DNA from: a virus
Virus record (IMG/VR): IMGVR_UViG_3300034093_003283
Strand: one strand, 5' to 3'
Length of the DNA: 64,000 nt
Shown: positions 30,283 through 57,830 of the stretch, one piece after another
Position numbering within the stretch: the first letter of the stretch is position 1
How the letters are laid out: each line of letters opens with the position of its first letter
Notes under the pieces: generated by a model
Database searches by the model: none
Seen by the model: only the letters and a program-made list of their open reading frames with translations
Told to the model about the DNA's origin: nothing
Program-made: the position numbers and the translations under genes

Positions 30283-30624
30283 ATGCCAGCTGGTTACCAA
30301 GAATTATTTCTAGAACAAGGTTCAAACTTTAGTACATCCATTTCTTTGGACCAGGCTGATGGTTCACCTTTTGTTTTGACTGGTAGCCAAGTAAAAGCTG
30401 CCATGAAAAAATCATATTATTCTAGTAATACAACCGCAAATTTTGTAGTAACAGTAAATGATCCAACAGAAGGTGTTATACTTTTAACTTTACCTTATGC
30501 AAATACGGCAAATATTTTAGCCGGCCGTTATGTGTATGATGTACTTATCAAAGATTCTTCAAACACAGTGATACGTGTTTTAGAAGGAGTTGTGAACGTT
30601 TTACCTCAAGTTACAGTATTTTAA
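30283..30624 (+). CDS. Small Ig-like virion/fibre-attachment protein
   Basis: L.LEQG..F...I......GSP..LTG....A.M.KSY, G.I.L.L....TA....GRYVYDV.I......V.RV.EG.V.V.P.VT. First gene after a late promoter. Confidence 0.6.
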   Translation: MPAGYQELFLEQGSNFSTSISLDQADGSPFVLTGSQVKAAMKKSYYSSNTTANFVVTVNDPTEGVILLTLPYANTANILAGRYVYDVLIKDSSNTVIRVLEGVVNVLPQVTVF

Positions 30625-30633
30625 AGGAATAAA

Positions 30634-31167
30634 ATGGCGACCGTAACTGTTACACAACCAGCAACCATAAAAGTTAGAGTTGAAGGTCAGAAAACTAAAG
30701 TACAGACGTTATCCTATGGTACCAAAACACTTAGGAGTTTAACTGACCTTAGTTTAGTTGGTGCAAACACGGGTGATGTGATTGTATACAACTCACAAAC
30801 CAAAACATTTTCTGCAAAAGGCCTTGGTACCGATACTCCTGTACATGGAAATCTATTACCAACAACTTCAAGAACATTCGACCTGGGTAGTAGAACACAA
30901 AAATTCCGAAGTCTTTATCTAAGTGGTAATACAATTGACTTGGATGGTACAGTTATTAAAGCTGATGAAGTTTCTGGTGCAATATCTTTTGCTGCACGTC
31001 CAACTGAAACACAACCAAATCCAATCGCTATTGTTGTATCTCCAATTGGTGGTTTTGTGCCTGTTCAAACTGTTGCTGGTGTAATTCCAGAAGCAGCAAT
31101 TCAGGCCGCAATAGCAAACTCAATAACGTATTTGGCTTTCCAAGGTGCTGATTCCGGTTTCTTTTAA
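30634..31167 (+). CDS. Fibre-associated protein, ends in ADSGFF
   Basis: L..LTD.......TGD.IVYN, GNLLP..S.TFDLGS...KFR.LYLSG.TI fibre motifs. RBS AAGGA. Confidence 0.6.
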   Translation: MATVTVTQPATIKVRVEGQKTKVQTLSYGTKTLRSLTDLSLVGANTGDVIVYNSQTKTFSAKGLGTDTPVHGNLLPTTSRTFDLGSRTQKFRSLYLSGNTIDLDGTVIKADEVSGAISFAARPTETQPNPIAIVVSPIGGFVPVQTVAGVIPEAAIQAAIANSITYLAFQGADSGFF

Positions 31168-31380
31168 ATGGCAAATACATCAATACAAATTCTCCGTTCA
31201 TATGCGAACACAGCACCTTCATCATTAGCAGACGGGGAACTTGCATATTCTTTTCTTTCCAACACACTTTTTATTGGAAATACCACTAATCATGTAATAC
31301 CGATAGCCGGTTTGAATTATATTGAATCCGTTCCAGGACCAGTTACCGAAAATTCCACTTTTGACGGTGGCACGTTTTAA
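31168..31380 (+). CDS. 70-aa protein: Mtd N-terminal-like domain plus C-terminal DGGTF
   Basis: IQILRS....APSSL.DGELAYS.....LFIG resembles the trimeric Mtd/hyaluronidase N-terminal domain. Confidence 0.7.
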   Translation: MANTSIQILRSYANTAPSSLADGELAYSFLSNTLFIGNTTNHVIPIAGLNYIESVPGPVTENSTFDGGTF

Positions 31381-31386
31381 TAAATA
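31379..31386 (+). promoter_or_regulatory. T4-type late promoter (AATAAATA)
   Basis: At the gene junction upstream of 31429. Confidence 0.6.
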
Positions 31387-31428
31387 GATCATAGGATTTA
31401 AATCCAATTAACAACAAGGATAATAATA

Positions 31429-33345
31429 ATGGCAAATACAGCACTAAGAATTAGACGTTCTCTTACCACAGGCATGCCGGGCAGTTTGGTAGCTGGTGAA
31501 ATAGCGTACTCATATCAATCCAATACCATGTTTATTGGCTCACCTGCTGGCACAGGTGTACTCAATATTGGTGGGCAATATTACACCTCAACTATAGATA
31601 GTGCAACCAGTTCAAATACTGGAGGCACACTTGTCCAACGTAGTGCAACTGGTAATATCTTTGTTGGCCACGCAAACGTTAGAAGTATTAGCTTCTCTGA
31701 CGGTGGTGTGTTAAGCACAACTTCATTCTCGGGTAATGCAAACTCTGCAACTCAATTCCAGACCAACAGATTTATTGATATTACTGGTGGTGATATTACT
31801 GCTTCTGCACAATTGTATGATGGTACTGCAAATGCAACATTAAGTGCAGCATTAAATACAGTTGCTGGTCTTTCTGCGGGTACATACGGTGGTTCAACAG
31901 TCATACCTATCATTCAAGTAGCTGCAAACGGTCGTGTTATGGTCATTGCCAATTCGGCAACAATCTCTACATCATTGAGTGTTGCTGCTGACTCTGGTAC
32001 AACTGACGTAGTTAATTTAGCAACTGACACATTTACAATTGCTGGTGGTGCAGGCCTTACATCAACTGTAACAAACAATCAAGTAACTATTGATGTTGAC
32101 ACTACAGTCATTCGTGCAAATACACCAAGTATGAGACAAACCATTGATGGTGACCTTATCATCAGTGGTAACGTATCCATTTTAGGTAACTCTACAGTAT
32201 ACAACGTTGAAACACTTAGTGTTGAAGACTCATTGATTGCACTTGGTAAAAACAACACATCAGATGCAGTTGATATTGGTTTCTACGGTCACTACAATAA
32301 TGGTGCAGACCGTCATGCAGGTTTGATGCGTAATGCTGGTGATGGTTTCTTCTATTTGTTTGACAACTATAACATAGAACCAACAGGTAACGTCATCAAC
32401 GTTGCAGATGCAAGCTTCCGTCAAGCAAACTTGAAATCTAATTTAATTGCAGCATATGCCAATACAACTCAAGCAAACGTTGGAAATCTATTTGTTGCCG
32501 GCACCGCACAAATTAAATCATTAACTTTAACTGATGATTTAACAGTACCTAACGGTGGTACTGGCGCAAGTACATTCACTATTGGTTCTATCCTTGTTGG
32601 TGATGGCACAGATTCATTAAAAGAACTTTCTAACACAACATTTACTGCAACTGGTAGTGGTGCTCAAAATAACACCATCACTTCTGTAACTGTTGATTCA
32701 TATGGTAGAACAACTGCTGCAACATTCCAAGCAATTAATGGTCTAACAGTTGGCCAAGGCGGTACAGGTAAATCTACTTTTGCTTCAGGTAAAGTTGTTA
32801 TTGGTAACGGTACAGGCGCTCTAGTAGAACTTGCAAACGTTACTTACACACTTACCGGTTCATTAAGTGCAGCTAAAACAATCACATCGTTGACTGTAGA
32901 TGATTATGGTCGTGTAAGTGCTGCAACAGCAGCAGACATTTCTGGTCTAACCGTTACACAAGGCGGTACCGGTGCATCCACATTAAGTGCTGGTGGTTTG
33001 TTAATTGGTAATGGAACAGGTGCAATTTCTACACTTGCAAATACCACCTACACACTAACCGGTTCATTAGGTGCTGCAAAAACAATTACATCATTGACTG
33101 TTGATGCATACGGCCGTGTAAGTGCTGCAACTGCGGCTGATATTGCAGGTCTGACTGTTGCACAAGGCGGTACTGGCGCTTCTACATTCACTTCAAAAGG
33201 TATCGTTTACGGTGACGGCACAAATGCACTAGCAGTTACCTCTGCTGCAGGCACATCGGATCAAACATGGTCTAATCAGATTCTTACAACCACAGATGCA
33301 GGTGTACCAGTTTGGTCATCCTCAATAGATGGAGGACAATTCTAA
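31429..33345 (+). CDS. Fibre protein: Mtd N-terminal-like domain, repeat shaft, C-terminal DGGQF
   Basis: LRIRRS.....P.SL.AGE.AYS, VEDSLI.L....D.GFYG.Y module, and tandem L.V.QGGTG.ST...ITS.TVD.YGR repeats (about 32540-33240). Confidence 0.75.
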   Translation: MANTALRIRRSLTTGMPGSLVAGEIAYSYQSNTMFIGSPAGTGVLNIGGQYYTSTIDSATSSNTGGTLVQRSATGNIFVGHANVRSISFSDGGVLSTTSFSGNANSATQFQTNRFIDITGGDITASAQLYDGTANATLSAALNTVAGLSAGTYGGSTVIPIIQVAANGRVMVIANSATISTSLSVAADSGTTDVVNLATDTFTIAGGAGLTSTVTNNQVTIDVDTTVIRANTPSMRQTIDGDLIISGNVSILGNSTVYNVETLSVEDSLIALGKNNTSDAVDIGFYGHYNNGADRHAGLMRNAGDGFFYLFDNYNIEPTGNVINVADASFRQANLKSNLIAAYANTTQANVGNLFVAGTAQIKSLTLTDDLTVPNGGTGASTFTIGSILVGDGTDSLKELSNTTFTATGSGAQNNTITSVTVDSYGRTTAATFQAINGLTVGQGGTGKSTFASGKVVIGNGTGALVELANVTYTLTGSLSAAKTITSLTVDDYGRVSAATAADISGLTVTQGGTGASTLSAGGLLIGNGTGAISTLANTTYTLTGSLGAAKTITSLTVDAYGRVSAATAADIAGLTVAQGGTGASTFTSKGIVYGDGTNALAVTSAAGTSDQTWSNQILTTTDAGVPVWSSSIDGGQF

Positions 33346-33393
33346 AGGCTGACTATATAATGTAATAGATTTTTTTTATGATAGGAGTTTGAA

Positions 33394-34149
33394 ATGGCAA
33401 ATGAGAAGTATTTAAATTATTATATTGAGACAATGACAAGCACATTAACAGATTGTGTGGTTCGAAATATCTCAATGCAAGCAAATGCAAAAATAACTGA
33501 TGAGGTTGTTAAAGAACAGACTGAGAAAATTGATAATTTAAAGTTGATGAATAGTGAACTACAATCTATGATTGTGGAACTAAAAGATACCAATGCATCA
33601 AGTGAAAGCACAGCTGTTCTAGAACTGAAAAATACATTGTTAGAAAGTGAAAAACTTGTAACAAAATTAAGCAACGATGTTGGTGAATTAGGTACCAAAC
33701 ATCGTGCCGAAATTGATGAATTGACAAGTAAGTTTCGTGATTATGATAGTGTTAAGAATCAAGCTGGTCATGTGGAAACATTTAAAGGTGAATTGATTAA
33801 AGCAAGAGAAGAGGTTAGTCGGGTTCGTTCAGAACTTGAAAACAAAATCAATTCTCTTACATCTGAAAATACTGGAAAAATTAATGCAATGAATGAACAG
33901 AATGAAAAAACTGTTGCATCATTATTGAAACAAAATGAAGATACTGTTAACAATTTGATTCAGAAACATGAAACTGAAAAGAGTGAATACAACAATAAGA
34001 TAGACGATCTACTTGCTAAAATTGATTACTTACAACTACCTCCTTCCAAAAGAAAAAAAATTGATGAGCTGAATAAAGAAGTGGAACCAACAACTTTAAC
34101 AAGTTTAATTGGTACCAATGGCCCAATCAAAGATGGTGGAACGTTTTAA
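33394..34149 (+). CDS. Long charged coiled-coil protein ending in DGGTF
   Basis: E/K/L/N-rich heptads over about 200 aa. RBS AGGAG. Confidence 0.7.
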   Translation: MANEKYLNYYIETMTSTLTDCVVRNISMQANAKITDEVVKEQTEKIDNLKLMNSELQSMIVELKDTNASSESTAVLELKNTLLESEKLVTKLSNDVGELGTKHRAEIDELTSKFRDYDSVKNQAGHVETFKGELIKAREEVSRVRSELENKINSLTSENTGKINAMNEQNEKTVASLLKQNEDTVNNLIQKHETEKSEYNNKIDDLLAKIDYLQLPPSKRKKIDELNKEVEPTTLTSLIGTNGPIKDGGTF

Positions 34150-34153: not shown

Positions 34154-34633
34154 ATGTCAAACACAGCAATACAGTTAAAAAAATCAGGCGCAACGGGAAA
34201 CACACCATCAGGACTATCCTATGGTGAGTTAGCACTCAACTACGCCGATGGTAAACTGTATTATAAAAATGGTTCTGGTGGTACTTCTTACATAAGTAAC
34301 CAATTCTCTTTCGATACAATCAATGCCAATAGTTCTTTAATATTGGCCACAAGTGGTTCGGACACACTGTCTTTTATTGCTGGTAATAATATAACCATCA
34401 GTACAAATACAACCACAAAAACAATCACAATCAATGCATCAGTGTCTGGAGGAAGTGATCCTGGTCCTGCGTTTGACAGGGCCAATGCAGCATATGCATC
34501 ACAAAACATCACAGCGGTGTTTGCTAATGCAGCTTTCATTCATGCCAATGCTGCCTTTGATAAGGCCAACACAGGCACGACCGCACTTGATGTAAATGCC
34601 GACATTGTTGCTTTCACTATCGCATTTAGTTGA
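34154..34633 (+). CDS. Short fibre connector: Mtd N-terminal-like domain, AN heptads, hydrophobic C-terminal peptide AFTIAFS
   Basis: IQLKKS......P..L.YGELA.NYADGKLYYK, then A..SDTL.F.AG.NITI, then ANAAF repeats. Confidence 0.7.
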   Translation: MSNTAIQLKKSGATGNTPSGLSYGELALNYADGKLYYKNGSGGTSYISNQFSFDTINANSSLILATSGSDTLSFIAGNNITISTNTTTKTITINASVSGGSDPGPAFDRANAAYASQNITAVFANAAFIHANAAFDKANTGTTALDVNADIVAFTIAFS

Positions 34634-34662: not shown

Positions 34663-34989
34663 ATGGCAAATACTTTTAAAAATCAACTACAAGCAGCAGT
34701 CGGAACTTCACCTACAACCATATACACTGCTGGCGCAGGCGTATCTACCACAGTTATTGGTATGACTATTGCAAATATATTGAACACATCAATAACTGCA
34801 AATGTTATAGTAACTTCTAGTGCATCAGATTATTATATGGTTAAGATGGCTACAATTGATCCAGGTAATTCTTTAATCACCATTGGTGGTGAACAAAAAT
34901 TAGTATTGGAAGCCGGTGATATACTTAAAGTTTCAACAAGTAATGCTTCAGCAGCAGACGTTATTGTAAGTTTATTAGAAATAACGTAA
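34663..34989 (+). CDS. Small beta-sandwich adaptor, type 1 (MANTFKN)
   Basis: T.IYT.......TVIGM.IAN, I.PG.SL......K.VLE.GD.L.V, DV.VS.LEI. Similar to 41155 and 44152. Confidence 0.65.
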   Translation: MANTFKNQLQAAVGTSPTTIYTAGAGVSTTVIGMTIANILNTSITANVIVTSSASDYYMVKMATIDPGNSLITIGGEQKLVLEAGDILKVSTSNASAADVIVSLLEIT

Positions 34990-34990: not shown

Positions 34991-35722
34991 ATGCAATTCA
35001 CTTACATTGGCAATCAAGGAAGTAAGGATGTAAGGTTAGCCAGTTCATTTGCCAATGGTGCATTTGTAACTGCTAACTCAGCAGCCTCTTTCGCCAATGG
35101 TGCTTTTGGTGCAGCCAATTCGGGTGCTAGTTTCGCTAATGCGGCTTTTGCTCATGCTAATGCAGCCTTTGCTGCAGCAAATACTGGAGGTGGTGGAGGA
35201 GCATTAACAGGATATGTTGATGTGTTTACTGGTGACGGTTCAACGTCAGCTTTCACATTATCAACCACACCAACAAGTGCTAATATAACTTTTGTTGCTG
35301 TACAGGGTGTCTTGCAACCTAAAGCTTCATATAGTTTAACTGGGAACTTATTAACTTTTGATTCAAATCCACCGAGCACATCATATATTGAAGTAACCAC
35401 ATTGACTGGTGCTGGTGGTGCTGGTTCATCAATCACATGGTATATTGCAAATGCAAACACTACAATGACTGTCAGTTCTGGTTACTTTGTAAATACTATG
35501 GGTGGTCCATTAACAATGACTTTACCCGTAAGTGCAACTTTAGGAGACACTATCAGACTCAATGATTTGGCCGGAACATTTAGTGCAAATAATTTAACCA
35601 TTAATAGAAATTCACACAAAATACAAGGCAATACAAACGATTTAATAGTTAACGTAGACCAAAGTAGTTTTGGTTTAGTATACAGTAATAGCACATATGG
35701 TTGGAAAGTATTGGAGTTATAA
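34991..35722 (+). CDS. Fibre connector: YIGN N-terminus, AN heptads, GDGST beta domain, gp9/gp10/gp34-like C-terminal attachment domain
   Basis: C-terminal GYFVNT.GG..T.TLP.SA..GD.I...D..GTF..NNLTI.RN..KI.G...DL......FGLVY.....GW. Confidence 0.65.
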   Translation: MQFTYIGNQGSKDVRLASSFANGAFVTANSAASFANGAFGAANSGASFANAAFAHANAAFAAANTGGGGGALTGYVDVFTGDGSTSAFTLSTTPTSANITFVAVQGVLQPKASYSLTGNLLTFDSNPPSTSYIEVTTLTGAGGAGSSITWYIANANTTMTVSSGYFVNTMGGPLTMTLPVSATLGDTIRLNDLAGTFSANNLTINRNSHKIQGNTNDLIVNVDQSSFGLVYSNSTYGWKVLEL

Positions 35723-38541
35723 TGGCAACAACAAATCTAACAAACCTAAAAGCAAATGCTTTATCCAATGTTGTAAGTACAGTACTGTCTACAACAGGAG
35801 TTTCTTCTGTTCCAAAAATTACAACGATTACTTATCCTGGAGATGATACTGCCGCAAATACTGGTGGCAATCAAACGATTTCAATATCTGGAACTGGATT
35901 TAATACAGGTGCCTCTGTTATTGTTAATGGTACACCAGCAAGTGTTGTGAGTGTTGTGAGTCCTACAAGTTTGACGTTCACTGCACCTGCACAATCTTCG
36001 GGAACATACACACTTTATGTTGTGAACACAGATGGTGGTACGGCGATTGCAGTTCCTGGTATTAGTTATAGTGGCACACCAACATGGAGTACTGCTTCAG
36101 GAAGTCTTGGTACAGTATATGAAACTAACGCAGTAAGTAATACTGTAACAGCAACAGGTGATGCAACAATCGCATACAGTCTATTTTCAGGTACACTACC
36201 TACAGGTAGTACACTGAACACAGCGAACGGATTAATATCTGGAACTTCGGTGGCCACAGAAAGTCCGACAACATACAGTTTCACCATTCGTGCAACTGAC
36301 GGTCAAAATCAAGATACGGACCGTGCATTTAGTATAACAATTAGTCCTGATACGGTTACATGGAGTAGTCCAGCGGATCAATATTCAACTTCATTGGCAC
36401 AAGATACCGCAATGAGCGCATTCACTATGAGTGCAAGTAGTGCTGCAGGTAAAAGTATCACATATACTGCAAATAGTTTACCAACAGGATTAAGTATCAG
36501 TGGTGCAACTATCGTGGGTACTCCAACTGTAACGGGAACTAGTGGCAGTTTAATCACAGCAACAGCAGCCACAACAGGTCGCACTGCAACAAGGACATTT
36601 AATTGGGTAGTGAGTGTGTCAATTGATACATATTGGCCTTATACTGTTTTATTATTAAACGGCGAAGGTACTAATGCAACTGATAATGCACAAAATATTA
36701 CAGTCATAGACAGCAGTACTAATGCTTTTACAATTACTAAACAAGCTGGTACAACAAGACAAGGTACATTCAGCCCATTCAGTGCTAGGGGATGGAGTAA
36801 TTATTTTCCAGCAGGTGCATTAACTACACCCGCTTCAGCAGTACATAATTTAGGTACAGGTGACTTTACGGTGGAATTATGGTACAACCAAGTGGGTGCA
36901 GTTGGCTATGGTGGATTGTTTATGTTGGGACAATATAATACAGGCATTCATATATCCCTAAACAATTCAACTTATACTGTTTATTGTCTAACCGGTTCTG
37001 AAGCATTTAATGGGGTTAGTGGTCCAGTAGTAAATGGTGAATGGAATCACGTAGCTTTAACAAGGTCCGGTACAACCCTTACGTTGTGGCACAATGGTGT
37101 GTCGAAAGGATCCGTTTCGAGTTCAGCTACAATAAGTCCAACAGCAGGAATTACCATTGGTGCAACTGGACATAATCCAGGCAGTGAAAGGTTTAATGGT
37201 TATATTTCCAACGTTCGGTTGGTTAAAGGAACTTGTTTATACACTTCAACATTTACTCCATCAACGACAGAATTAACAGCAATAACAGGCACAACTATAT
37301 TAGCATGTCAATCAAATGGATTCAAGGACAACAGTGAAAATAATTGGACATTTACAGTATCTGGCACCGTAAGTGTAAAAAAATTCAGTCCATTCAATGG
37401 CACCGCAGAATACGGTACAACAACTCATGGTGGCAGTTTATATTTTGATGCCAGTACATATTATACATTGCCGTATAATGCAGCCTTTGGTGCAGGTACC
37501 GGCGATTTCACTTTAGAAGCCTGGGTATATCCCACATCTAGTGCTGGAAATATGGCTGTTGTTGATGGTGGGAATGGGTCTGGCGGTCGAGCCAGTACCG
37601 GGCATTTTATATATTTCCAAGATGCCATGCAAGCAACTTACTTTACAAATGGTGGTAATCAAATCACCGGAGCTGCAATAGTTGCCAATGTATGGACACA
37701 CATAGCTGTAGTTAGAAGTAGTGGTAGCACTAAAATGTATATCAATGGTACTCAATCAGGAAGTACATATACGGACAGTACAAACTATGGTACACAACAA
37801 CCATACATAGGAAGAAACAGTGATTCAAACGGAAATCTTTGGACTGGATATATTTCTGGTTTAAGATTTGTTAAAGGTACAGGAGTTTATACAACCACAT
37901 TTACTCCACCTACAGCTCCATCAACAGCGATATCAGGTACTTCATATTTACTAAATGGATCTAATGCGGGTATTATTGACCAAACTGGTATGTCTAGTTT
38001 TGTCAATCAAGGAACTACTGCAAAAATTACCACTGCTAATAAAAAATACGGTAGTGGAAGTATGTCATTTACAGCATCTAATGGAGATTACTTCACCTAT
38101 TCTCATCCGATTCCATTTCCTACTGCATTTACTATTGAGCTTTGGTTCTACCCCACTATTAGTCAATCAGACAAATATCTATTTTGTGGCCAAGCTAGTC
38201 CGATGATTAATATTAATGGTACTATGGGATTGGGATTTGCACATCAGGGTGCATTTGTGGCTTATACTTCGGCTAATTATATTACTACAAACACTTGGTA
38301 TCATCTTGCATACGTCCGTGAAGGTCTTGGAAGCAATCAAACAAAATTATATTTAAACGGCACAGTTGCTCTTATGGGAACAGAATCGGCCACCTTTGAT
38401 GGAGGTGGAATAACTGCAATAGGTGCGGGCGATAATGGTACACAAGTTTTTACCGGATATATTGATGATCTTAGAATCACTTATTATCCAAGATATACAA
38501 CAACATTTACGCCGCCATCAGCTGCATTCCTTTTGAGATGA
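35722..38541 (+). CDS. Adhesin-like protein: IPT/TIG plus Ig-like domains plus 3 LamG/ConA-like lectin domains
   Basis: I.GTGF..GA.V...., LPTG..L....G.ISGT Ig repeats, GTGDFT.E.W...W.H.A..R.G...NG...F.GYI..LR modules. Start moved from TTG 35701 to ATG 35722 (overlaps upstream TAA, GGAG RBS). Confidence 0.8.
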   Translation: MATTNLTNLKANALSNVVSTVLSTTGVSSVPKITTITYPGDDTAANTGGNQTISISGTGFNTGASVIVNGTPASVVSVVSPTSLTFTAPAQSSGTYTLYVVNTDGGTAIAVPGISYSGTPTWSTASGSLGTVYETNAVSNTVTATGDATIAYSLFSGTLPTGSTLNTANGLISGTSVATESPTTYSFTIRATDGQNQDTDRAFSITISPDTVTWSSPADQYSTSLAQDTAMSAFTMSASSAAGKSITYTANSLPTGLSISGATIVGTPTVTGTSGSLITATAATTGRTATRTFNWVVSVSIDTYWPYTVLLLNGEGTNATDNAQNITVIDSSTNAFTITKQAGTTRQGTFSPFSARGWSNYFPAGALTTPASAVHNLGTGDFTVELWYNQVGAVGYGGLFMLGQYNTGIHISLNNSTYTVYCLTGSEAFNGVSGPVVNGEWNHVALTRSGTTLTLWHNGVSKGSVSSSATISPTAGITIGATGHNPGSERFNGYISNVRLVKGTCLYTSTFTPSTTELTAITGTTILACQSNGFKDNSENNWTFTVSGTVSVKKFSPFNGTAEYGTTTHGGSLYFDASTYYTLPYNAAFGAGTGDFTLEAWVYPTSSAGNMAVVDGGNGSGGRASTGHFIYFQDAMQATYFTNGGNQITGAAIVANVWTHIAVVRSSGSTKMYINGTQSGSTYTDSTNYGTQQPYIGRNSDSNGNLWTGYISGLRFVKGTGVYTTTFTPPTAPSTAISGTSYLLNGSNAGIIDQTGMSSFVNQGTTAKITTANKKYGSGSMSFTASNGDYFTYSHPIPFPTAFTIELWFYPTISQSDKYLFCGQASPMININGTMGLGFAHQGAFVAYTSANYITTNTWYHLAYVREGLGSNQTKLYLNGTVALMGTESATFDGGGITAIGAGDNGTQVFTGYIDDLRITYYPRYTTTFTPPSAAFLLR

Positions 38542-41154: not shown

Positions 41155-41484
41155 ATGGCAACAGCATACAAAGTTTTAGGTCAATCAAATCCAGCAGCAA
41201 ACACAGCAACAACTCTTTATACTGTACCTGCGGCAACAAGTACAATTATTTCCACACTTTCTATTTGCAATCAGTCTGCAACTGGTGGCACAGTTAAAGT
41301 GGCTATTCGTCCAGCAGGAGCAACATTGGCTACACAACACTATTTGGCATTTGACGCACCTGTACCAGCAAATGATATGTTATCATTGACACTTGGTTTA
41401 ACTTTAGCAGCAACTGATGTTGTCACAGTAAATGCAAGTAGTGCATTAATAAGTTTTCATGCTTATGGTAGTGAGATAACATAA
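41155..41484 (+). CDS. Small beta-sandwich adaptor, type 2 (MATAYKVLGQ)
   Basis: TTLYTVP....TIIST..ICN, V.AND...LTLG.TL...DV.TV, SF..YG.EI. Confidence 0.65.
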   Translation: MATAYKVLGQSNPAANTATTLYTVPAATSTIISTLSICNQSATGGTVKVAIRPAGATLATQHYLAFDAPVPANDMLSLTLGLTLAATDVVTVNASSALISFHAYGSEIT

Positions 41485-41485: not shown

Positions 41486-42415
41486 ATGTCTGTTAAAAAA
41501 TTATCTAACAGTACATTATCCACTAAGAATACTTCTTTAAGTGGTGATTTAATAACAGTTGAGATGTTACTGGTTGGAGGAGGTGGAGGAGGTGGATCAG
41601 CAGGAGGTGGTGCTGGTGGTTATAATTATCAGAGCACATTTATTTTTAAAAAAAATGTAACCTATACAGTAATCGTTGGTAACGGTGGTGCTGGCGCCGC
41701 AGGAGTCTTCAGTGCGAGTTCTTCAAATGGAGAACGAGGTGGTGACACTTCAATCACATCAACTGGTTTTTCTTTGTATGCATATGGCGGTGGATGGGGC
41801 ATTGGAGGTTACACAGATCCAAAAAAGGCAGGAAGTGGCGCCTCAGGCGGCGGTGGAGTTAGTAGCTCCACAACAGACCACTTGGGCGGGGAACCAATCA
41901 CAGGTCAAGGAAATGCTGGAGGTGATGCATTTATATCAGGCACTGCTTTAGCAGGTGCCGGCGGTGGCGGCGCAGGTGCTGTTGGTGGAAATAGTGTAAG
42001 CGCCACAGTGGCAGGTTCAGGTGGTATTGGATTACAAAATTCCATAACAGGCACTGCAACATATTATTGCGGCGGTGGCGGTGGCGGCAGCAGCGGCGCC
42101 GGCACAGCGGGCAACGGTGGTGCAGGTGGTGGTGGTGGAGGAAGTTCAACAGCTGGAGGCACAGGAGGTTCAAACGGCGGCCAGAATGGAACAAATACAG
42201 TTGGTGGGAATGGCGGAACAAATTCCGGCGGTGGCGGTGGTGGTATGAAAAACTCCGCCGGCACTAATGCAGGTAACGGTGGTTCAGGTATTGCAGTCAT
42301 CAAGTACCCAACCGGTTACGCAGCAGCCACAACAACAGGTACAGTTACATATTCAATACTATCTGGTTTTAGAATATATACCTTTACAGGTTCAGGAACA
42401 ATTAAATTTAATTAA
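41486..42415 (+). CDS. Glycine-rich adhesin-like tip protein
   Basis: VE.L.VGGGGGGG...GGGAGG, YTV.VG.GG, G.G....ITG...YY.GGGGG, GGSG...I.YP, IYTFT.SG. Polyglycine composition as in T-even gp38-type adhesins. Confidence 0.7.
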   Translation: MSVKKLSNSTLSTKNTSLSGDLITVEMLLVGGGGGGGSAGGGAGGYNYQSTFIFKKNVTYTVIVGNGGAGAAGVFSASSSNGERGGDTSITSTGFSLYAYGGGWGIGGYTDPKKAGSGASGGGGVSSSTTDHLGGEPITGQGNAGGDAFISGTALAGAGGGGAGAVGGNSVSATVAGSGGIGLQNSITGTATYYCGGGGGGSSGAGTAGNGGAGGGGGGSSTAGGTGGSNGGQNGTNTVGGNGGTNSGGGGGGMKNSAGTNAGNGGSGIAVIKYPTGYAAATTTGTVTYSILSGFRIYTFTGSGTIKFN

Positions 42416-50696: not shown

Positions 50697-50716
50697 GTAT
50701 GAAAAGGCTATAACTA

Positions 50717-51994
50717 ATGTCAACACAAGTACCTCCATCAAGATTAGATTCAACCAAAGATTTTTCATCTTTGGTACCCTCTGCATTTGGCCGAGCAAAT
50801 CTTGCTTTTGCACAAGCTAATGCTGCGTTTGCACAAGCAAATACTGGCGGTTCTGGTGCAGATGCATATGCAAGAGATACGGCCAATGCGGGATTCATTA
50901 CTGCAAACTCAGCGTCAGTATTTGCGAATGGTGCATTTGATAGAGCCAATGCATCTTATGGTGTTGCAAATTCCGGTTCATCATTTGCAAATAGTTCTTT
51001 TGACCGTGCTAATGCAGCATACAATGCAGCTAATACAGCAACAGATTCATGGGTAAGAACTCAGGCAAACAATGCTTATGATAAAGCAAATTCGGCTGGT
51101 TCTTTTGCAAACGGTGCTTTTGATAGAGCTAATGCATCTTATGCATCACAAAACACTACGGCGGGTTTTGCCAATTCGGCATTTGCACACGCAAATGCGG
51201 CCTTTGCATCTGCTAATATAGCTAGTGGAAGTAATAACACAATATCGATTCAAACGGATAAATTTGTAGCAAATGGATCAACAACAACATTTAATTTAAG
51301 TGTAACACCTTTAAGTGAAGATTTTGTTACGGCAGTTGTTGAGGGTGCTGTTCAACTGAGAGACACATATACAGTATCAAGCAATGTGATATATTTTGAT
51401 TCAACATTCGAAAACGGTGCAAATATTGAAGTAACCATTTTGTCCGGAAATTCTTATTTGAGTGTATCAAGCACGGATACATATGCTAGAGGTACAGCAA
51501 ATGCAGCATTTGCAAAAGCAAATAATAATCTAACAGCCGCAACAGCTCAATCAGGCAGCGGAACAGCTGTAGACTTTACTAGTATTCCAAGTTGGGTTAA
51601 AAGAATAACTCTAATGTTTGCATTAGTTAGTACCAACGGAAATTCATTTCCTTTGGTTCAATTGGGAAATGGTGGATCAGCAACCACTTCGGGATACAAC
51701 TCAGTAGGCACAGCACTAACGGCTAGTGCCACAGGTGTATCAACAAGCACCGCTGGATTTATTATAAGAAACACTGGACAGTCAACTAGTTCTATGCATG
51801 GAAGTGTAGTTTTTAGTAATATAAATGGCAACCGTTGGGTGGCTTCCGGAACTTTTATAGATACTCAAGACAGTAGAACAATGTGGTGTGTTGGCCAAGT
51901 GGATTTGGGTGGCACTCTTGATATGCTCAGAGTTACCACAGTTAACGGATCAGACTCATATGATACCGGTACCATTAACATATTATATGAGTAA
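50717..51994 (+). CDS. Fibre protein: PSRLDSTKD N-peptide, AN heptads, GSTT domain, C-terminal globular tip
   Basis: C-terminal SGT.VDFT.IPSWVKRIT.MF..VST.G......QLG domain. Confidence 0.7.
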   Translation: MSTQVPPSRLDSTKDFSSLVPSAFGRANLAFAQANAAFAQANTGGSGADAYARDTANAGFITANSASVFANGAFDRANASYGVANSGSSFANSSFDRANAAYNAANTATDSWVRTQANNAYDKANSAGSFANGAFDRANASYASQNTTAGFANSAFAHANAAFASANIASGSNNTISIQTDKFVANGSTTTFNLSVTPLSEDFVTAVVEGAVQLRDTYTVSSNVIYFDSTFENGANIEVTILSGNSYLSVSSTDTYARGTANAAFAKANNNLTAATAQSGSGTAVDFTSIPSWVKRITLMFALVSTNGNSFPLVQLGNGGSATTSGYNSVGTALTASATGVSTSTAGFIIRNTGQSTSSMHGSVVFSNINGNRWVASGTFIDTQDSRTMWCVGQVDLGGTLDMLRVTTVNGSDSYDTGTINILYE

Positions 51995-52002
51995 ACAATA
52001 AA

Positions 52003-53751
52003 ATGCCAACAAAATTAAGTCCGTCAAGATTAGATTCAACCAAAGATTTTTCATCGTTGGTGCCTTCTGCCTTTGACCAAGCCAACTCTGCCGCTTCATT
52101 TGCAAACGGTGCTTTTACGGCAGCTAATACATCGGACTCAAAAGCTACAAGTGCTGGTGTATTTGCCAATAACGCATTTGATAGAGCTAATTCTGCCTAT
52201 GAAACGGCTAATGCAAGTTCTGGTACCTATGCAACGGCAGCTTTTGGTCAAGCCAATTCGGCAGCCAGTTTTGCTAATGGTGCTTTTACAACAGCCAATT
52301 CTAGTGCATCTTTTGCCAACGGAGCCTTTACTAAAGCAAACAATGCACTTGCAAATACCAGTGGTGCCACATTTAATGGAATTTTAAATGTTACAGGAAC
52401 ACTTAGAGCTCTATCTCAAGGTGGAGATGAAGGTGGTGAAATATTCTTAGACAAAGCCTCAACCAATACAACTTTGTCAGCTGGTGTAACAATTGACATT
52501 TATCAAAATAAACTTAGAATTTTTGAAACTGGTGGTTCTGTACGTGGTGCATTCATTGACATGTCTGCTGCAGGTGCAGGTGTTAGTAGTGATTTGTTAT
52601 CTGGTGGCGGAGGTGGTACAGTAGACACTACTGCTAGAGCTTCGGCGGCCACAGCAGATGCAAAAGCAGTCTCAGCAGCAGAATTTGCCAATGGTGCATT
52701 TGATAGAGCCAATGCTGCATATAATACTGCAAATAATGCAACAGATTCATGGGTGAGAAATCAGGCTAACAATGCCTATGATACAGCCAACTCGGCAGGT
52801 TCATATGCCAACGGAGCATTTACAACCGCAAACTCAGCCGCATCGTTTGCTAACGGAGCTTTCACGGCAGCCAATACGGCTGATGATAAAGCCACAAGTG
52901 CTGGTTCATTTGCTAATGGTGCTTTTGTAACTGCTAATAGTGGCGCAACATTTGCCAATGCAGCCTTTGATAGAGCCAATGCAGCATATGCACAGGCAAA
53001 TACAGGTGGTGGCGGTGGCGCTGATGCTTATGCCAGAGATACAGCAAACGCAGCTTTCTTGCAAGCCAACTCGGCAGCCAGTTTTGCTAATGGTGCTTTC
53101 GTAACAGCCAATGCATCCTATGCATCACAAAACACCACAGCATCTTTTGCAAACGGAGCATTTACAGCAGCCAATACGGCTGATGATAAAGCCGTTAGTG
53201 CTGGTTCATTTGCTAATGGTGCTTTTGATAGAGCCAACGCATCATATACTGCACAGAATACGACAGCAGGATTTGCCAACTCGGCATATGCACACGCCAA
53301 CGCAGCTTACTTAGCAGCAAATACAGGTGGTGGAGGTGGCGGCGGTGCTGATGCTTATGCCAGAGATACAGCAAATGCGGCTTTCTTAAAAGCAAATACA
53401 AATGTACTTATTGTTTCAATTGTAGAAGATTCAACATTTGTCACAGTAGGATCAGCTAAAGCAACATTTAGAGCACCATATGCCATGACATTGACAGGTT
53501 TACCTAGAGCTACATTAAATGTGGCATCAACTAGCGGAGTTGTTAACGTTGATGTTAAGTTAAGTGGCACAACAATATTAGGTGCAAATAAATTAACACT
53601 TGATGCAACAGAAAAAACAAGTACAACTGCGGCCGCAGCAACAAGTTATGTAACCACATCTATTGCTGACGATGCAGAAATTTCAATAGATGTTTTTTCT
53701 GCTGGTGTAAATGCTAAAGGATTAAAAGTAATTTTTTATTATACAAGTTAA
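52003..53751 (+). CDS. Fibre stalk: PSRLDSTKD N-peptide, AN heptads, C-terminal connector domain
   Basis: Internal GGDEGGEI.L...IDIYQNKLRIFE.GG..RG module. C-terminal G.AK.TFR.PYAMTL..LPRA.L..ASTSG...VD...KGLKV domain shared with 56266. Confidence 0.7.
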   Translation: MPTKLSPSRLDSTKDFSSLVPSAFDQANSAASFANGAFTAANTSDSKATSAGVFANNAFDRANSAYETANASSGTYATAAFGQANSAASFANGAFTTANSSASFANGAFTKANNALANTSGATFNGILNVTGTLRALSQGGDEGGEIFLDKASTNTTLSAGVTIDIYQNKLRIFETGGSVRGAFIDMSAAGAGVSSDLLSGGGGGTVDTTARASAATADAKAVSAAEFANGAFDRANAAYNTANNATDSWVRNQANNAYDTANSAGSYANGAFTTANSAASFANGAFTAANTADDKATSAGSFANGAFVTANSGATFANAAFDRANAAYAQANTGGGGGADAYARDTANAAFLQANSAASFANGAFVTANASYASQNTTASFANGAFTAANTADDKAVSAGSFANGAFDRANASYTAQNTTAGFANSAYAHANAAYLAANTGGGGGGGADAYARDTANAAFLKANTNVLIVSIVEDSTFVTVGSAKATFRAPYAMTLTGLPRATLNVASTSGVVNVDVKLSGTTILGANKLTLDATEKTSTTAAAATSYVTTSIADDAEISIDVFSAGVNAKGLKVIFYYTS

Positions 53752-53753: not shown

Positions 53754-55805
53754 ATGACTATAACATATATTAATCAAGCAATCAGATATGTTCCACCTTC
53801 AGGTGAACAAGATTTCACCTCATTTGCTGGAGCTATTGATTGGATAGTGCCAAGAGGAGTCCACACAATTTCTGTTTTTGTCTGTGGTGGAGGCGGCGGA
53901 GGAGCTTGTTCTAGTACCAATGCTGCAACAGGTGGTGGTGGAGGAGATACAGCTTGGGGTAACAACATAAATGTAACTCCAGGTGAAGTTTTGTATGTAC
54001 AGATAGGTGCCGGCGGTGGCCAAGGTTCTGGTTCTGGTTCCGCTGGTGGTGCTGGCGGCGAATCATTTATTTCAAGAGATGGTATTAGATTAATAAGTGC
54101 AGCCGGCGGAGGCGGAGGCGTGATTGGACCAAGTGGATGTACATCTCCAAGCGGCACAACATCAACTTATAGTTTACCTTCGTCTGATTATGGATTAGGT
54201 GGTTATTCAGCTTCTACAGCAAGCGCAGCAAGTGAAAGAAGCACTGGCGGCGGAGGCGCAGGCGGATATGAAAGCACTTATCGTGGCGGTAGCGCTGTTG
54301 GTACAACAACTTATGCTTCGGGCGGTGGCGCTGGCGGCGCTGGGCGTTCCCAAGGCGGCGGTGGAGGTGTTGGTCCTTGGGGCCAAGGTAGCAGTGGAGC
54401 CGCAGGAGCATCTGGAAATGCCAACGGAAATGGAGGATCAGGAGGATCTCCAGTAACAAGTTATATCACATCAGTAGGTAACGTTGGAGCCACCGCATGG
54501 TCACCACATGGATGGTGTCTACATGGAGCATTATTTGGTGGCGGAGGAGGAGGAGGTCAAGGGGAAAACTCTGGCACTAGAGGTGGTATTGGTGCTAGAG
54601 GTTGTGTGAGAATTATTTGGGGAGAAAATAGAAGTTATCCAAGCACTAACACAGGACCCCAATATAATGGTATATCAGGATCAACAGGTGGTGCAGGATT
54701 TACTGGACCCGGCACTACTTCTTGGACTGTTCCTGATGGTATATCAACTTTTTCTGTATGTTGTATTGGTGGCGGCGGTGCAGGAATGCAAGGGACTTCA
54801 ACAACAGGTAAAGGATCAGGAGCTGGAGGAGGTTTAGGTTGGGCTTTTTTTAATTGTATTCCAGGAGAAACATTTACGGTTGTCGTTGGTGCCGGAGGAC
54901 AATCTACAGCAGTAAATACTGTTACGCAAGGCAGTTCCAGTTCTATAACACGCAACGTACAGTTTAAAGGATTTATTACAGGAACAACACTACACGTAGT
55001 TGAAATGATTTCAGGATTAATTACAACAGGTCAAACAATAACAGCTGCAGCAGGCGTAACTGCATGTGGTATAGATCAATTTATATCAGGTGCCCAAACA
55101 ACATATAAGTATGGTGGAGTGGGTGCATACACAGTTGGTGTATCACAAACTGTAGGTTCATTCACAAATTTAACCACATTCAATGCAACTGACATATTGT
55201 TGACAGCAACTGCTGGAGAATCTGCCAGAGCTGTTAGTGGCGGCAACCCAGTTGGAGGATCATATTCAGTAAGTGGCCGGGCTTTAGGTAGCGGTGGAGG
55301 TAATGGTGGAATCGGCGGAATAAGCAGTTCATCAACCACAGCTCGAGGCGGCGGCGGCGGTGGCGCCGGTGGGTACAATGGTACCGGCGGAAATGGAAGA
55401 GGTGCATCTGCAACGACGGCGGGAGGGAATTGGCCTGTATCAGCAGGCAATCCAACAACCACTCTTAGTGGTGCAGCTACCGGCGGCGCAACTGGGGCCA
55501 CGGCGCTTAGTGCTGGCGCAGGCGGCGGCGGAACTGGTTTTGGTGGACAAGGACCCGACGGTAATGCGTACTCCGGAACAGGTAGTTATTATTCATCTGC
55601 GTCACAACCATCAGTAATAGCGGGTCTCCCTGGTAGTTTTGGATCATATGGAGCAACTAGAGCAGGCAGTGCTGCAGGTGGTAATTACGGCGGCGGCGCA
55701 GGTGGTGCAGGAGGTGGTTTTTCAAGTGGAAGATGTAATGGTGGTGAAGGCGCTGTAGGTATCTTTTATGGTGCAAGACAACCGTATCCAGATCCTGGGT
55801 TATAA
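53754..55805 (+). CDS. Glycine-rich adhesin-like tip protein with two tandem Gly-rich domains
   Basis: Two W.VP.G....SV...GGGG.G ... V.PGE.....G.GG ... G.V.I.W/Y units. Locally GC-richer. Confidence 0.7.
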   Translation: MTITYINQAIRYVPPSGEQDFTSFAGAIDWIVPRGVHTISVFVCGGGGGGACSSTNAATGGGGGDTAWGNNINVTPGEVLYVQIGAGGGQGSGSGSAGGAGGESFISRDGIRLISAAGGGGGVIGPSGCTSPSGTTSTYSLPSSDYGLGGYSASTASAASERSTGGGGAGGYESTYRGGSAVGTTTYASGGGAGGAGRSQGGGGGVGPWGQGSSGAAGASGNANGNGGSGGSPVTSYITSVGNVGATAWSPHGWCLHGALFGGGGGGGQGENSGTRGGIGARGCVRIIWGENRSYPSTNTGPQYNGISGSTGGAGFTGPGTTSWTVPDGISTFSVCCIGGGGAGMQGTSTTGKGSGAGGGLGWAFFNCIPGETFTVVVGAGGQSTAVNTVTQGSSSSITRNVQFKGFITGTTLHVVEMISGLITTGQTITAAAGVTACGIDQFISGAQTTYKYGGVGAYTVGVSQTVGSFTNLTTFNATDILLTATAGESARAVSGGNPVGGSYSVSGRALGSGGGNGGIGGISSSSTTARGGGGGGAGGYNGTGGNGRGASATTAGGNWPVSAGNPTTTLSGAATGGATGATALSAGAGGGGTGFGGQGPDGNAYSGTGSYYSSASQPSVIAGLPGSFGSYGATRAGSAAGGNYGGGAGGAGGGFSSGRCNGGEGAVGIFYGARQPYPDPGL

Positions 55806-55822
55806 AATTGTAAGGAGAAAAT

Positions 55823-56263
55823 ATGATTAGTAATTTTAATTTATACATAGAAATTAAAGATGGAGAACCAATTGGGCATCCATATTTAAAATCAAATTTG
55901 GAAGAATTTAATCCAAACTTTCTTGATCCGAATGCAGAAAGAAAGTTTTGTCAATTTGTGAGGGTACCAAAGCCTCTTCCACAAAAATGGGATGAAATTG
56001 TATTAGACAGTGTGGAGTATAAAATTATTGACGGCATTTGTTATGATGTTTGGACTATTCGTGATTTAACATCAGAAGAAAGACAAGAAAGATTAGATAA
56101 CTTAGCCGCATCCAATCCTTATTCATCTTGGACTGTAGATGAAGTAAATTATGATTTAATTCCACCAACACCAAGGCCTAGTGAAGGTTCATGGGAATGG
56201 AATGAAGAATCGTTAAGTTGGATTCCTTATGTTGAACCAGAAGAACCCGAAACAACAGAATAA
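55823..56263 (+). CDS. Small acidic fibre-associated protein (possible tip chaperone or cap)
   Basis: C-terminal PY.SW........PPTP.P.....W.WNE....W motif. Follows a Gly-rich tip gene. RBS AAGGAG. Confidence 0.55.
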   Translation: MISNFNLYIEIKDGEPIGHPYLKSNLEEFNPNFLDPNAERKFCQFVRVPKPLPQKWDEIVLDSVEYKIIDGICYDVWTIRDLTSEERQERLDNLAASNPYSSWTVDEVNYDLIPPTPRPSEGSWEWNEESLSWIPYVEPEEPETTE

Positions 56264-56265
56264 AA

Positions 56266-56754
56266 ATGACAACACAAATAAAGTTACCTAATATAGACTC
56301 CTCGATTGATTATTCATCGTTGGTTGGTTCAGCATATGTTAAAGCAAACTCTGGTGCAACATTTGCTAATGCGGCTTTTACAACAGCAAATTCATCCGCA
56401 AACCTTTCAATGACGGTAGCTTTGAGTGATGAAACAACGGCGATAACTACGGGTACTGCCAAGGTAACTTTTAGAGTTCCATATGCAATGACGTTGTATC
56501 AACTACCAAGAGCATCATTGGCTACTGCAAGTACATCAGGTAATCCTACAGTTGATATAGATAAAAATGGAGTGTCGATTTTTAGTACACTTTTAAGTAT
56601 AGATGCAAATGAAAAAACAAGCGTAACTGCTGCAACGCCAGCTGTTTTGTCTACAACTACTTTTGCAGATGATGATGAAATAACTATGGATATTTCTACA
56701 GCTGGAACGGCCGCAAAAGGATTAAAAGTTACTCTTTATTATAGAAGAACATGA
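56266..56754 (+). CDS. Short connector, minimal paralogue of 52003
   Basis: N-peptide DSS.DYSSLV.SA, a few AN heptads, same C-terminal domain as 52003. Confidence 0.7.
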   Translation: MTTQIKLPNIDSSIDYSSLVGSAYVKANSGATFANAAFTTANSSANLSMTVALSDETTAITTGTAKVTFRVPYAMTLYQLPRASLATASTSGNPTVDIDKNGVSIFSTLLSIDANEKTSVTAATPAVLSTTTFADDDEITMDISTAGTAAKGLKVTLYYRRT

Positions 56755-57830
56755 GTTATCTTGTAAATTCTTACATTCTTGGACCAACCGGTATTGCTCC
56801 AGGGCAACAAGAATATACTACACCGGGCACATATTCATGGGTTGCACCTGAAGGTGTTACAAGTGTGAGTGTGGTTACAATTGGTGGTGGCGGTGCAGGT
56901 GGAGCTATGTGTCAAAATCAAACTTTACCATTCAGAATGGCCGGTGGCGGTGGCGGCGGCACAGGATGGAAAAATAATATTCCAGTTACGCCAGGAGTAT
57001 CGTATACTGTAGTTGTTGGTGCAGGACAATCAAGTGTATCAGCCAACGTTACAATTAATGTATATCCAGGAAGACACACAACAGGTAATAGTTATTTTAT
57101 TGATTTGTCTACAGTAGCCGGTTTCGGTGGATCAGGACCAACAAGTGCTGCAAGTGCCAATTCAGTTGGTGGCATCTTTGTTGGTGATGGTGGTGGTAAT
57201 GGTGGTGGTGCAAGTTCAACTAATTCACCATCTAGTGCCAACTCTGGTGTTTGGGGTGGTGGCGGTGCTGGCGGCATGATTTCTACTGGAGGAGCTCCAG
57301 GTGTACAAGGTAGATCATGGCCAAGTCCTGGTGGCGGAACATTTGGTGGTTCTGCCGGTGGGCAATCTGATGCATCAGGACCCACTGTCACCGATGGTGT
57401 AACATATGGCGGCGCAGCTGGTGGTGGAGGATCCTCAGGTGTGGAAAACGGACCTTCATCAAGAGGTGGTGGCGGCGGCGGTCAAAGTCTAAACCGAATA
57501 GTGAGTGGCAGTGGTGGCGCTGCAATATACACCATTAGTGGCGTCAAAACTGGTACCATTTCGTATGGTGGTGCAACCAGCGGCACTTCAACCGGAAGTG
57601 GATCTACCAATGGTGATAATGGTACCACAAATGCATTTACAGCTGCTGGTGGATATGGTGGAAATTATGGTGGCGGCGGCGCAGCAGTGCGTAAAGGTCC
57701 CGGTGTGGTTGGTGGATTACCTGTGGTTAGTGGGTATGGCGCTGGAGGTGCAGTAAGAATTATCTGGGCAGGCACAAGACCAGGTGATGTGTCTCGTTCT
57801 TTCCCAGAAACAAATCTTAGCAATTTATAA
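56751..57830 (+). CDS. Glycine-rich adhesin-like tip protein
   Basis: GQQEYTTPGTYSW.AP.GVTSVSVV.IGGGG.G, NNIPVTPG.SYTVVVG.G, G..GAVRIIW. Paralogous to 53754. Confidence 0.7.
   Translation: MSYLVNSYILGPTGIAPGQQEYTTPGTYSWVAPEGVTSVSVVTIGGGGAGGAMCQNQTLPFRMAGGGGGGTGWKNNIPVTPGVSYTVVVGAGQSSVSANVTINVYPGRHTTGNSYFIDLSTVAGFGGSGPTSAASANSVGGIFVGDGGGNGGGASSTNSPSSANSGVWGGGGAGGMISTGGAPGVQGRSWPSPGGGTFGGSAGGQSDASGPTVTDGVTYGGAAGGGGSSGVENGPSSRGGGGGGQSLNRIVSGSGGAAIYTISGVKTGTISYGGATSGTSTGSGSTNGDNGTTNAFTAAGGYGGNYGGGGAAVRKGPGVVGGLPVVSGYGAGGAVRIIWAGTRPGDVSRSFPETNLSNL

Follow-up and report, generated by a model that had tools for sequence, protein, structure and literature searches.

Paired terminal signatures at gene junctions of a 21-gene fibre region suggest modular docking joints in an uncultured T4-like phage

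Positions 30283-57830 of a 64,000-nucleotide (nt) stretch of DNA from IMG/VR virus record IMGVR_UViG_3300034093_003283 (the whole stretch is called the window below) hold a row of genes for stalk-like, small and tip-like proteins, which raises the question of whether the junctions between these genes are also joints between their products. The window belongs to an uncultured T4-like phage, and the region contains 21 open reading frames (ORFs), numbered g3 to g23, all on the + strand and separated by gaps of -4 to 48 nt (Table 1). A first-pass annotation had described more than 20 genes of recurring classes with paired terminal motifs at their boundaries, and had proposed peptide plugs and sockets that connect a branched receptor-binding appendage. 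We recovered the classes (heptad-repeat stalks, adaptors of ~110 amino acids (aa) and candidate tips) and the motif pairs as described, and Pfam matches bore out the two LamG arrays (g11, g17) and three Gly-rich proteins (g14, g20, g23). The adjacency of the motifs was conserved in related loci well beyond chance, and the plug-and-socket proposal was supported in part, in that, across hundreds of diverged loci, terminal signatures go with the kind of gene next to them and not with the body of their own protein. Judging from these sequence patterns, the gene junctions are probably protein joints, with specificity residing in the termini.

Terminal signatures at adaptor junctions

Three genes of the region, g9, g13 and g16, encode small adaptors, and ~80 loci were fetched for each (78 related loci and 48 isolate records for g9, 80 related loci for g16). 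In the 80 loci of g13 type, 64 of 70 upstream ORFs ended in [FL][LM]L[MGIS]G[AGM], compared to ~15 of 1347 other ORFs. The corresponding tails read ..AIA.S...G[FLG] upstream of g16-type adaptors and ..AF.IA[FL][SG] upstream of g9-type adaptors. Across the three adaptor types, the adaptor's own tail class was found at 42/46, 57/64 and 36/56 junctions and the class of another adaptor at none, and the tail classes were thus never cross-matched in ~166 non-redundant junctions.

The proteins bearing these tails are otherwise unrelated, with bodies of 42 to 1462 aa that include collagen-like and coiled-coil types. Their last 8 residues showed 37-48% pairwise identity compared to 16-19% in the preceding 40 residues, making the tail two to three times as conserved as what stands before it. 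The codons of the tail vary synonymously (leucine at position -4 uses all six), which argues for selection on the peptide and not on a DNA signal. A similar pattern was seen on the downstream side, where the first 8 residues were 42-44% identical compared to 10-22% further in. All 33 non-redundant proteins that follow g9-type adaptors start with M.{1,3}[YF][ILV]G, their heads having the general form M.(F.)Y[IL]G, while the heads after g16-type adaptors read MS.RY.GG or MFN.G.RGKR and are followed by highly diverse bodies.

This triplet of tail, adaptor and head also occurs in the siphovirus phiPsal1, the podoviruses HMO-2011 and HTVC010P and many myoviruses. In HMO-2011, a side-fibre-like protein with an ..AMAIAL tail precedes the adaptor (annotated as 'putative structural protein') and a tail-collar protein that starts MPYIG; in HTVC010P, an ..ALAIALG tail is followed by the adaptor ('virion structural protein'). 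Adaptors are further present in cultured pelagiphages and rhizobiophages, and the records of isolates annotate them as virion or virion structural proteins. Besides HMO-2011 and HTVC010P, cultured carriers include CRP-9, Melnitz and Rhizobium RHph phages.

The adaptor family

While g9, g13 and g16 look only ~30% alike, a single hidden Markov model built from the adaptor alignment detects all three. The family comprises more than 7900 clusters at 90% identity, which is a lower bound, and 2491 at 50% identity; some sources mislabel it 'OpcA'. None of the three adaptors matched a Pfam family at E 0.01, including Caudo_TAP (PF02413). The AlphaFold2 (AF2) model of g13 is a jelly roll of 8-9 strands with a predicted local distance difference test (pLDDT) score of 96.4 and is similar to jelly rolls of oligomeric proteins, among them the KHP40 trimeric cement protein (Z 9.5), nucleoplasmin, Ena and XepA/YomS. 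Structure searches with the adaptor (Foldseek, VIA) returned generic jelly rolls and no specific family, and in the ESM Atlas g13 hit only viral hypothetical clusters. Profiles of the adaptor family and of the g22 knob family (see below) had no matches among PDB sequences, and a profile-profile comparison of these two families gave no homology (probability 2%).

Natural fusions provide a further view of how adaptors relate to their neighbours. Among the best 150 representative clusters, 105 are stand-alone adaptors and 24 are tandem; in longer proteins, the adaptor lies at the N terminus in 17 and at the C terminus in 4. The long proteins carry Gly_rich_2, LamG, TIG/He_PIG or RCC1 domains, and one of them (P0192) corresponds to g13 and g14 joined, that is, to an adaptor plus Gly_rich_2. 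Where the adaptor is fused C-terminally to a fibre (P0230, P0176, P0206), the hydrophobic tail is absent, as expected if it serves non-covalent docking alone. In locus L369, the upstream fibre of a fused adaptor-tip gene still ends in ..FLLMGA.

Two unusual arrangements were also observed. Tandem double adaptors (P0121-P0141 and others) measure ~215-240 aa, and in L369:899-7474, L371:2798-7149 and L367/L368, which are loci containing fused adaptor-tip genes, three successive adaptor-bearing genes stand behind one tailed stalk. At least three adaptor domains were present in 8 of 184 loci. More speculatively, three adaptor genes behind one stalk may represent a heterotrimeric hub.

Related contigs provided a comparison of whole cassettes. 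In 14 of them, g3-g9 are kept with all terminal signatures, although bodies are down to 42-43% identity, and the content beyond g9 is wholly different. The stalk with the g9-cognate head ranges from 88 to 1417 aa in these relatives and has three alternative ends. Where it carries the g13-cognate tail, a g13-type adaptor and a Gly-rich protein come next; where it carries the g16-cognate tail, the next genes encode a g16-type adaptor and either a LamG array or a Gly-rich protein; and where it closes with an XD1-like domain, the next protein bears a g11-type head. Among these relatives, each tail class went without exception with its adaptor type and each adaptor type with its tip head, and the XD1-like end with the g11-type head. 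In one relative (L093/L169), one stalk of 1334 aa connects the g9 adaptor directly with the g16 adaptor and LamG tip, a purely serial chain. The window looks like such a chain with extra modules inserted.

Other junction types

In addition to the adaptor junction (J1), three other kinds of junction (J2 to J4) were found in the region. At J2, a C-terminal knob is followed by a ..INPY-type head. The knobs of g19 and g22 are 50% identical, and in both the C-terminal 115 residues form a predicted jelly roll behind a helix (residues 16-43 in g22; AF2 prediction, pLDDT 85.8 for g22). The best structural match of the g22 knob, modelled as a single chain, was the jelly roll at the C terminus of the long fibre of Agrobacterium phage 7-7-1 (9rkv_M, VIA Z 10.0; PMC12796354), followed by TNF/C1q-type folds at Z 6-7 (4-1BBL, C1q and BclA). 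Of 120 longer homologues, 117 have this knob at the C terminus, on many kinds of stalk, and in 27 of 32 loci a protein with the head M..[FL][LFI][IL]N[PS][YF] follows at -4 to +2 nt, with Gly-rich or unrelated bodies.

J3 involves domains with a known relative. When compared to the PDB with phmmer, g10 matched the CBA120 tailspike TSP4 in its N-terminal region (TSP4-N; 7REJ/7RFO/7RFV) at E 8.6e-13 in two stretches, with g10 141-240 aligned to TSP4 75-174 (XD1) and g10 82-154 to TSP4 196-270 (XD2), using the domain limits of PMC8825819. It also matched Pfam DUF4183 and the N-terminal regions of tail spikes in PHROG. TSP4-N assembles the branched CBA120 tailspike complex; its XD2 and XD3 jelly rolls are trimer-binding surfaces, XD1 is more of a spacer, and XD2 serves as a side-docking module in both CBA120 and T4 gp10 (PMC8825819). 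By these alignments, the g10 domains are true homologues of the TSP4-N assembly domains. In g10, they lie C-terminally behind a heptad stalk, in the order XD2 then XD1, and do not occupy the N-terminal position that they have in tailspikes. An XD1-like end followed by a g11-type head was found in 5 relatives with different bodies. XD2-like inserts are also present in g15 and g18, and residues 8-154 of g10 are 50% identical to residues 368-511 of g15. True branch points would most plausibly lie at the inserts in g10, g15 and g18.

At J4, D[GS]GxF-COOH protein ends (g4, g5, g6, g7) stand with Mtd_N-like heads (g5, g6, g8), and g5 has no part other than such a head and end. The resemblance to Mtd_N (PF18454) is no more than that, as g5 scored 12.6 bits (E 0.14), below the cut-off of 26.3. 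Relatives with no more than 43% identity retain the g4 ending, and distant loci show the pairing on widely differing bodies. Among non-redundant plug-ended ORFs, 55 of 85 were followed by an Mtd_N-like ORF, compared to a background of 1.7%.

Proposed assembly and alternative explanations

We propose that the region encodes a distal host-recognition apparatus as a kit of separately translated parts, in which trimeric heptad-repeat stalks would end in short signatures recognised by the next gene product. At J1, the 8-10-residue hydrophobic C-terminal tail would dock into the adaptor, which would also hold the N-terminal peptide of the next protein. The adaptors g9, g13 and g16 would form three mutually exclusive joints of this kind in one virion, and three such non-cross-matching sets in one genome would prevent mis-assembly. 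At J2, the g19 or g22 knob would be capped by a protein headed ..[FLY][IL]N[PSQ][YF], here g20 or g23; at J3, the XD2/XD1 domains ending g10, which are of the T4 gp9/gp10 type, would hold a g11-type head; and at J4, D[GS]GxF-COOH ends would pair with Mtd_N-like heads. Because specificity would lie in the termini, stalk lengths and tips could be freely exchanged by recombination. The outcome would be several fibre types, with the distal LamG, Gly-rich and knob proteins as candidate receptor-binding tips. We infer docking and oligomeric state from the anatomy, homologies, fusions and conserved adjacency, and connection of the parts into a single tree would be a further step.

Chaperone genes usually sit just 3' of fibre genes, and the ~110-aa proteins, which are small, might instead be non-structural chaperones akin to Tfa or T4 gp38, with the tails as their recognition tags; PHROG names such as 'tail fiber assembly' on some neighbouring genes would fit. 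The N-terminal fusions to tip-type domains (17 of the best 150 representative clusters) and the separate downstream motif of each adaptor subfamily make this unlikely, the isolate annotations point to structural proteins, and g21 is a better Tfa-like candidate, although itself a weak lead. Slightly more doubtful still is the idea that the conserved gene ends are recombination, linker or translational-coupling sequences that have no docking role. Relatives do differ exactly at the junctions, genes overlap or lie a tiny gap apart, and the glycine at tail position -2 prefers GGA, which could add to a ribosome-binding site. A pure recombination signal is nonetheless unlikely given the conservation of the amino acids under wide synonymous variation; the same tails also precede adaptors in unrelated phage types, from phiPsal1, HMO-2011 and HTVC010P to myoviruses, and they are lost once the adaptor is covalently fused to the fibre.

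A more serious competitor accepts joints and questions the tree: several independent serial fibres, each attached to the baseplate or neck, with adaptors as in-line knees. We regard this as quite possible, though not as the favoured outcome. The layout of L169/L093, which runs from g9 adaptor through one stalk to g16 adaptor and LamG tip, is purely serial, and the N-terminal head common to g18, g19 and g22 would fit three parallel fibres with one kind of attachment site, while g12 and g15 have different heads of their own. Against it stand the XD2-like jelly-roll inserts of g10, g15 and g18, in view of the side-docking role of XD2 (PMC8825819), and the loci with three adaptor-bearing genes after one tailed stalk, which suggest more than one partner per end. 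Serial chains are thus directly suggested by the relatives, and branching by the inserts and three-adaptor loci.

For the docking reading itself, several points call for caution. Adjacent genes are co-inherited, and the adjacency signal is therefore partly phylogenetic, above all for J4 and the g3-g9 core; with much of its signal from a syntenic block, J4 is less well supported than J1. The motif patterns were written after the data had been seen. Jelly-roll matches at Z 8-10 are in the range of a common fold, with no family named, and the presence of adaptors in virions is taken from the annotation of isolate records. Fused forms were found neither for J4, in all fetched loci, nor for J2, where none of the 120 longer homologues joined the knob to a ..INPY protein and three had tandem knobs. 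The J2 knob also resembles terminal receptor-binding knobs, and the downstream Gly-rich proteins might therefore not sit on it. Strict adjacency is not obligatory, as L165 has a 117-aa gene between the tailed stalk and the g13 adaptor. Overall, the support for docking comes from sequence patterns. A predicted complex of three copies of the last 60 residues of g12 with three copies of g13, made with an alignment, scored 0.00 without controls and weighs neither way.

Relation to known systems

The statement in the first-pass annotation that no such system had been described was too strong, because hyperbranched complexes of many receptor-binding proteins (RBPs) are known in Klebsiella jumbo phages. 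Such complexes, with gp10-like domains and conserved N-terminal anchors, have been described for RaK2/phiK64-1 (PMC10253068), and PMC12796354 cites one for phiKp24. Together with the KP32-type anchor-branch pairs, these systems resemble the present one in having at least 10 fibre or spike genes in a row, and in conserved N-terminal anchor peptides that dock on branching domains with modular exchange, as proposed here. They differ in hosts, in tip chemistry and in docking via gp10-like domains. To our knowledge, a joint of tail, adaptor and head has not been described for these phages.

CBA120 (TSP1-4) and G7C (gp63.1/gp66) carry several RBPs per virion and resemble g10 in their XD domains, and the likeness extends to the use of small beta-jelly-roll modules as trimer-to-trimer assembly surfaces (PMC8825819). 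In those phages, XD domains start the tailspikes and the tips are depolymerase spikes, whereas the present XD domains stand at the end of a coiled-coil stalk, LamG arrays, Gly-rich proteins and knobs take the place of the spikes as tips, and most joints consist of 110-aa adaptors and terminal peptides that have no detectable XD homology. The T-even long fibre (gp34-gp35-gp36-gp37) is alike in its consecutive gene products, its small joint protein and a gene order that equals assembly order, and the T2/S16-type gp38 adhesin is alike as a separately encoded Gly-rich distal protein. No sequence similarity to the T-even fibre was found, and the present system differs in its predicted jelly-roll adaptors, three parallel joint versions and short terminal peptides.

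Two further systems show partial likenesses. In the L-shaped fibres of T5/DT57C (p132 collar, branched LtfA-LtfB), the counterpart is g3, which opens the module as an anchor would and falls in a p132-like PHROG (phrog_3304, 'L-shaped tail fiber protein assembly', E 1e-16), with a weak match to p132 in PDB 7qg9. Its score against Pfam LtfC (PF23926) was 18 bits, below the cut-off of 27; the phrog_3304 match nonetheless makes distant p132/LtfC-like membership likely, while the rest of the T5/DT57C system is unrelated to what is found here. In BPP-1, Bbp9 ends in ..DLGGIA directly before Mtd, which loosely resembles the D[GS]GxF ends that here precede heads such as MANT.IQ.R. The differences are that Mtd_N is sub-threshold here, that the diversity-generating retroelement is missing and that four proteins in a row carry the motif. 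Phage A1002 has chain-like fibres that dock by beta-sheet augmentation (PMC13730344); these were considered and set aside as unrelated.

The principle of branched multi-RBP complexes with anchor peptides is thus known from CBA120, G7C, KP32-type and Klebsiella jumbo phages. What appears new is the adaptor family, its three-part signature, its breadth across morphotypes and abundant aquatic phages, and the presence of at least 4 joint types together in one 27-kb cassette. A bolder extension, which we put forward tentatively and think improbable as it stands, is that the adaptor with its cognate tail and head peptides is a general orthogonal connector in thousands of aquatic phages of three morphotypes, including HTVC010P-type pelagiphages, with three-adaptor loci as heterotrimeric hubs that give three tips per fibre. 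If the termini are true docking codes, fibre architecture and RBP partners could be read from sequence in uncultured phages, and a function could be given to a family of ~2500 clusters (50% identity) whose members at present go as hypothetical or under the wrong name 'OpcA'. Changes of host range in abundant freshwater and marine phages could then be tracked as module exchange at defined joints, and the small orthogonal plug/socket pairs could be used for building phages with chosen sets of tips.

Gene order and other features of the region

The region was earlier placed between gp8 and gp13, the interval that in T4 contains gp9-gp12 and wac. It does lie inside this interval, which starts at gp8 (phrog_438, E 5e-84), with much extra content before g3: a protein of 2142 aa, a fibre of 1467 aa that has a Peptidase_S74 chaperone domain, and g2. 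The order on the + strand before the region is gp48, gp53, gp5, gp25, gp6, gp7, a 600-aa heptad-repeat fibre and gp8, and gp13, gp14 and gp15 come after g23. Neck genes have ~70% DNA identity to genes of pelagimyophages and cyanomyoviruses. None of the window genes scanned had a Pfam match to T4 gp9, gp10, gp11, gp12 or fibritin.

Table 1 Features of the region and its surroundings (positions in the window)
Feature	Position	Strand	Description
gp8	16386-17753	+	phrog_438
Late-promoter-like site	30255..30262	+	TATAAATA, T4-type, 5' of g3; sole exact match in window
g3	30283..30624	+	113 aa; T5 p132/LtfC-like beta-sandwich, candidate fibre anchor
g4	30634..31167	+	177 aa; ends ADSGFF (31147-31164), first candidate J4 plug
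g5	31168..31380	+	70 aa; Mtd_N-like head, FDGGTF tail
g6	31429..33345	+	638 aa; Mtd_N-like head, globular insert common to g12/g15, ends IDGGQF
g7	33394..34149	+	251 aa; E/K-rich helical, ends KDGGTF
g8	34154..34633	+	159 aa; Mtd_N-like head, short heptad stalk, hydrophobic tail ..AFTIAFS (34601-34630)
g9	34663..34989	+	108 aa; jelly-roll adaptor (predicted), subfamily 1; profile E 2.4e-12
g10	34991..35722	+	243 aa; head MQFTYIGNQ, heptad stalk, XD2-like (35219-35452), XD1-like (35411-35719)
g11	35722..38541	+	939 aa; TIG + He_PIG + 3 LamG
g12	38578..41145	+	855-aa heptad stalk, tail ..SPFLLMGA (41116-41142)
g13	41155..41484	+	109 aa; jelly-roll adaptor (predicted), subfamily 2; profile E 7.1e-50
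g14	41486..42415	+	309 aa; Gly_rich_2 candidate tip, Pfam E 9e-16
g15	42418..44142	+	574-aa heptad stalk, XD2-like insert, tail ..AMSIVFGF (44110-44139)
g16	44152..44511	+	119 aa; jelly-roll adaptor (predicted), subfamily 3; profile E 4.8e-8
g17	44511..50693	+	2060 aa; He_PIG + 8 LamG; head MFNAGVRGKR
g18	50717..51994	+	425 aa; shared N-terminal head ..SRLDSTKDF.., stalk, XD2-like insert, globular end
g19	52003..53751	+	582 aa; g18-type head, stalk, C-terminal jelly-roll knob (53371-53748)
g20	53754..55805	+	683 aa; Gly_rich_2; head MTITYINQ
g21	55823..56263	+	146 aa; acidic, W-rich; possibly Tfa-like assembly chaperone (weak lead)
g22	56266..56754	+	162 aa; shared head, one helix, C-terminal jelly-roll knob (56398-56751)
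g23	56751..57830	+	359 aa; Gly_rich_2; head MSYLVNSY; 4-nt overlap with g22 stop

The candidate tips passed their Pfam cut-offs, with Laminin_G_3 (PF13385) above its gathering cut-off in g11 (163.7 bits, 3 stretches) and g17 (455.9 bits, 8 stretches), and Gly_rich_2 (PF21722, cut-off 24.3) at 59.1 bits in g14, 49.9 in g20 and 38.4 in g23. At the C terminus of Gly-rich tips (42368-42412 in g14, and in related loci), a conserved strand Y.[IV]Y.[FW]T.SG[ST]I.F is followed by another adaptor-bearing gene or by a stalk with the head MAFP.SP.NG, and may mark a further junction type. Apart from the weak p132 match of g3, a phmmer search of the PDB returned nothing useful for g3, g6, g11, g14 and g18. 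The small protein g21 had no Pfam match; its link to Tfa is a feature score of 0.77 to Caudo_TAP clusters in the ESM Atlas, a weak lead. Small acidic Trp-rich proteins of this kind recur in the cassettes (g21, L165:8617-8970, L371:8217-8597, L004:5303-5620), many of them beginning MAHFA.. or MSHFA.. and finishing ..W.E, and the protein that intervenes between stalk and adaptor in L165 is one of them.

Heptad stalks were identified in g8, g12, g15, g18 and g19 and in the N-terminal parts of g10 and g22. They are rich in A, N and S, show autocorrelation peaks at lags of 7, 14 and 21 residues, match Alanine_zipper weakly and are interrupted by globular inserts common to paralogues. The 600-aa protein between gp7 and gp8 (14573-16375) has the same Ala/Asn heptad repeats, and the stalk family thus reaches into the baseplate gene block. 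The heads of g18, g19 and g22 (50716-50844, 52002-52130 and 56265-56393) form repeat family D14, with 64-75% DNA similarity, and no conserved upstream plug precedes them.

Of three late promoters proposed earlier, those at 30255 (TATAAATA) and 50689 (AATAAATA) match the consensus and that at 38546 does not. Other ATAAATA sites lie at 31380, 34638, 50690 and 57850; the window has 10 in all, each on the + strand and most a short way 5' of a gene start, and the motif stands before g3, g6, g9, g18 and gp13. A non-coding element of ~78 bp is present in two ~80% identical copies (8871-8948 and 30177-30254), which have the common block TTCCGGCCC.AGAATTTTC.CCG; one copy ends at the late-promoter-like site preceding gp25 and the other at the one preceding g3. 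A direct repeat of 300 bp (family D12) links g12 (39378-39677) and g15 (42906-43205) with 82% identity at an offset of 3528 bp, and a crossover between its copies would remove the g13-g14 cassette and join the two stalks into one.

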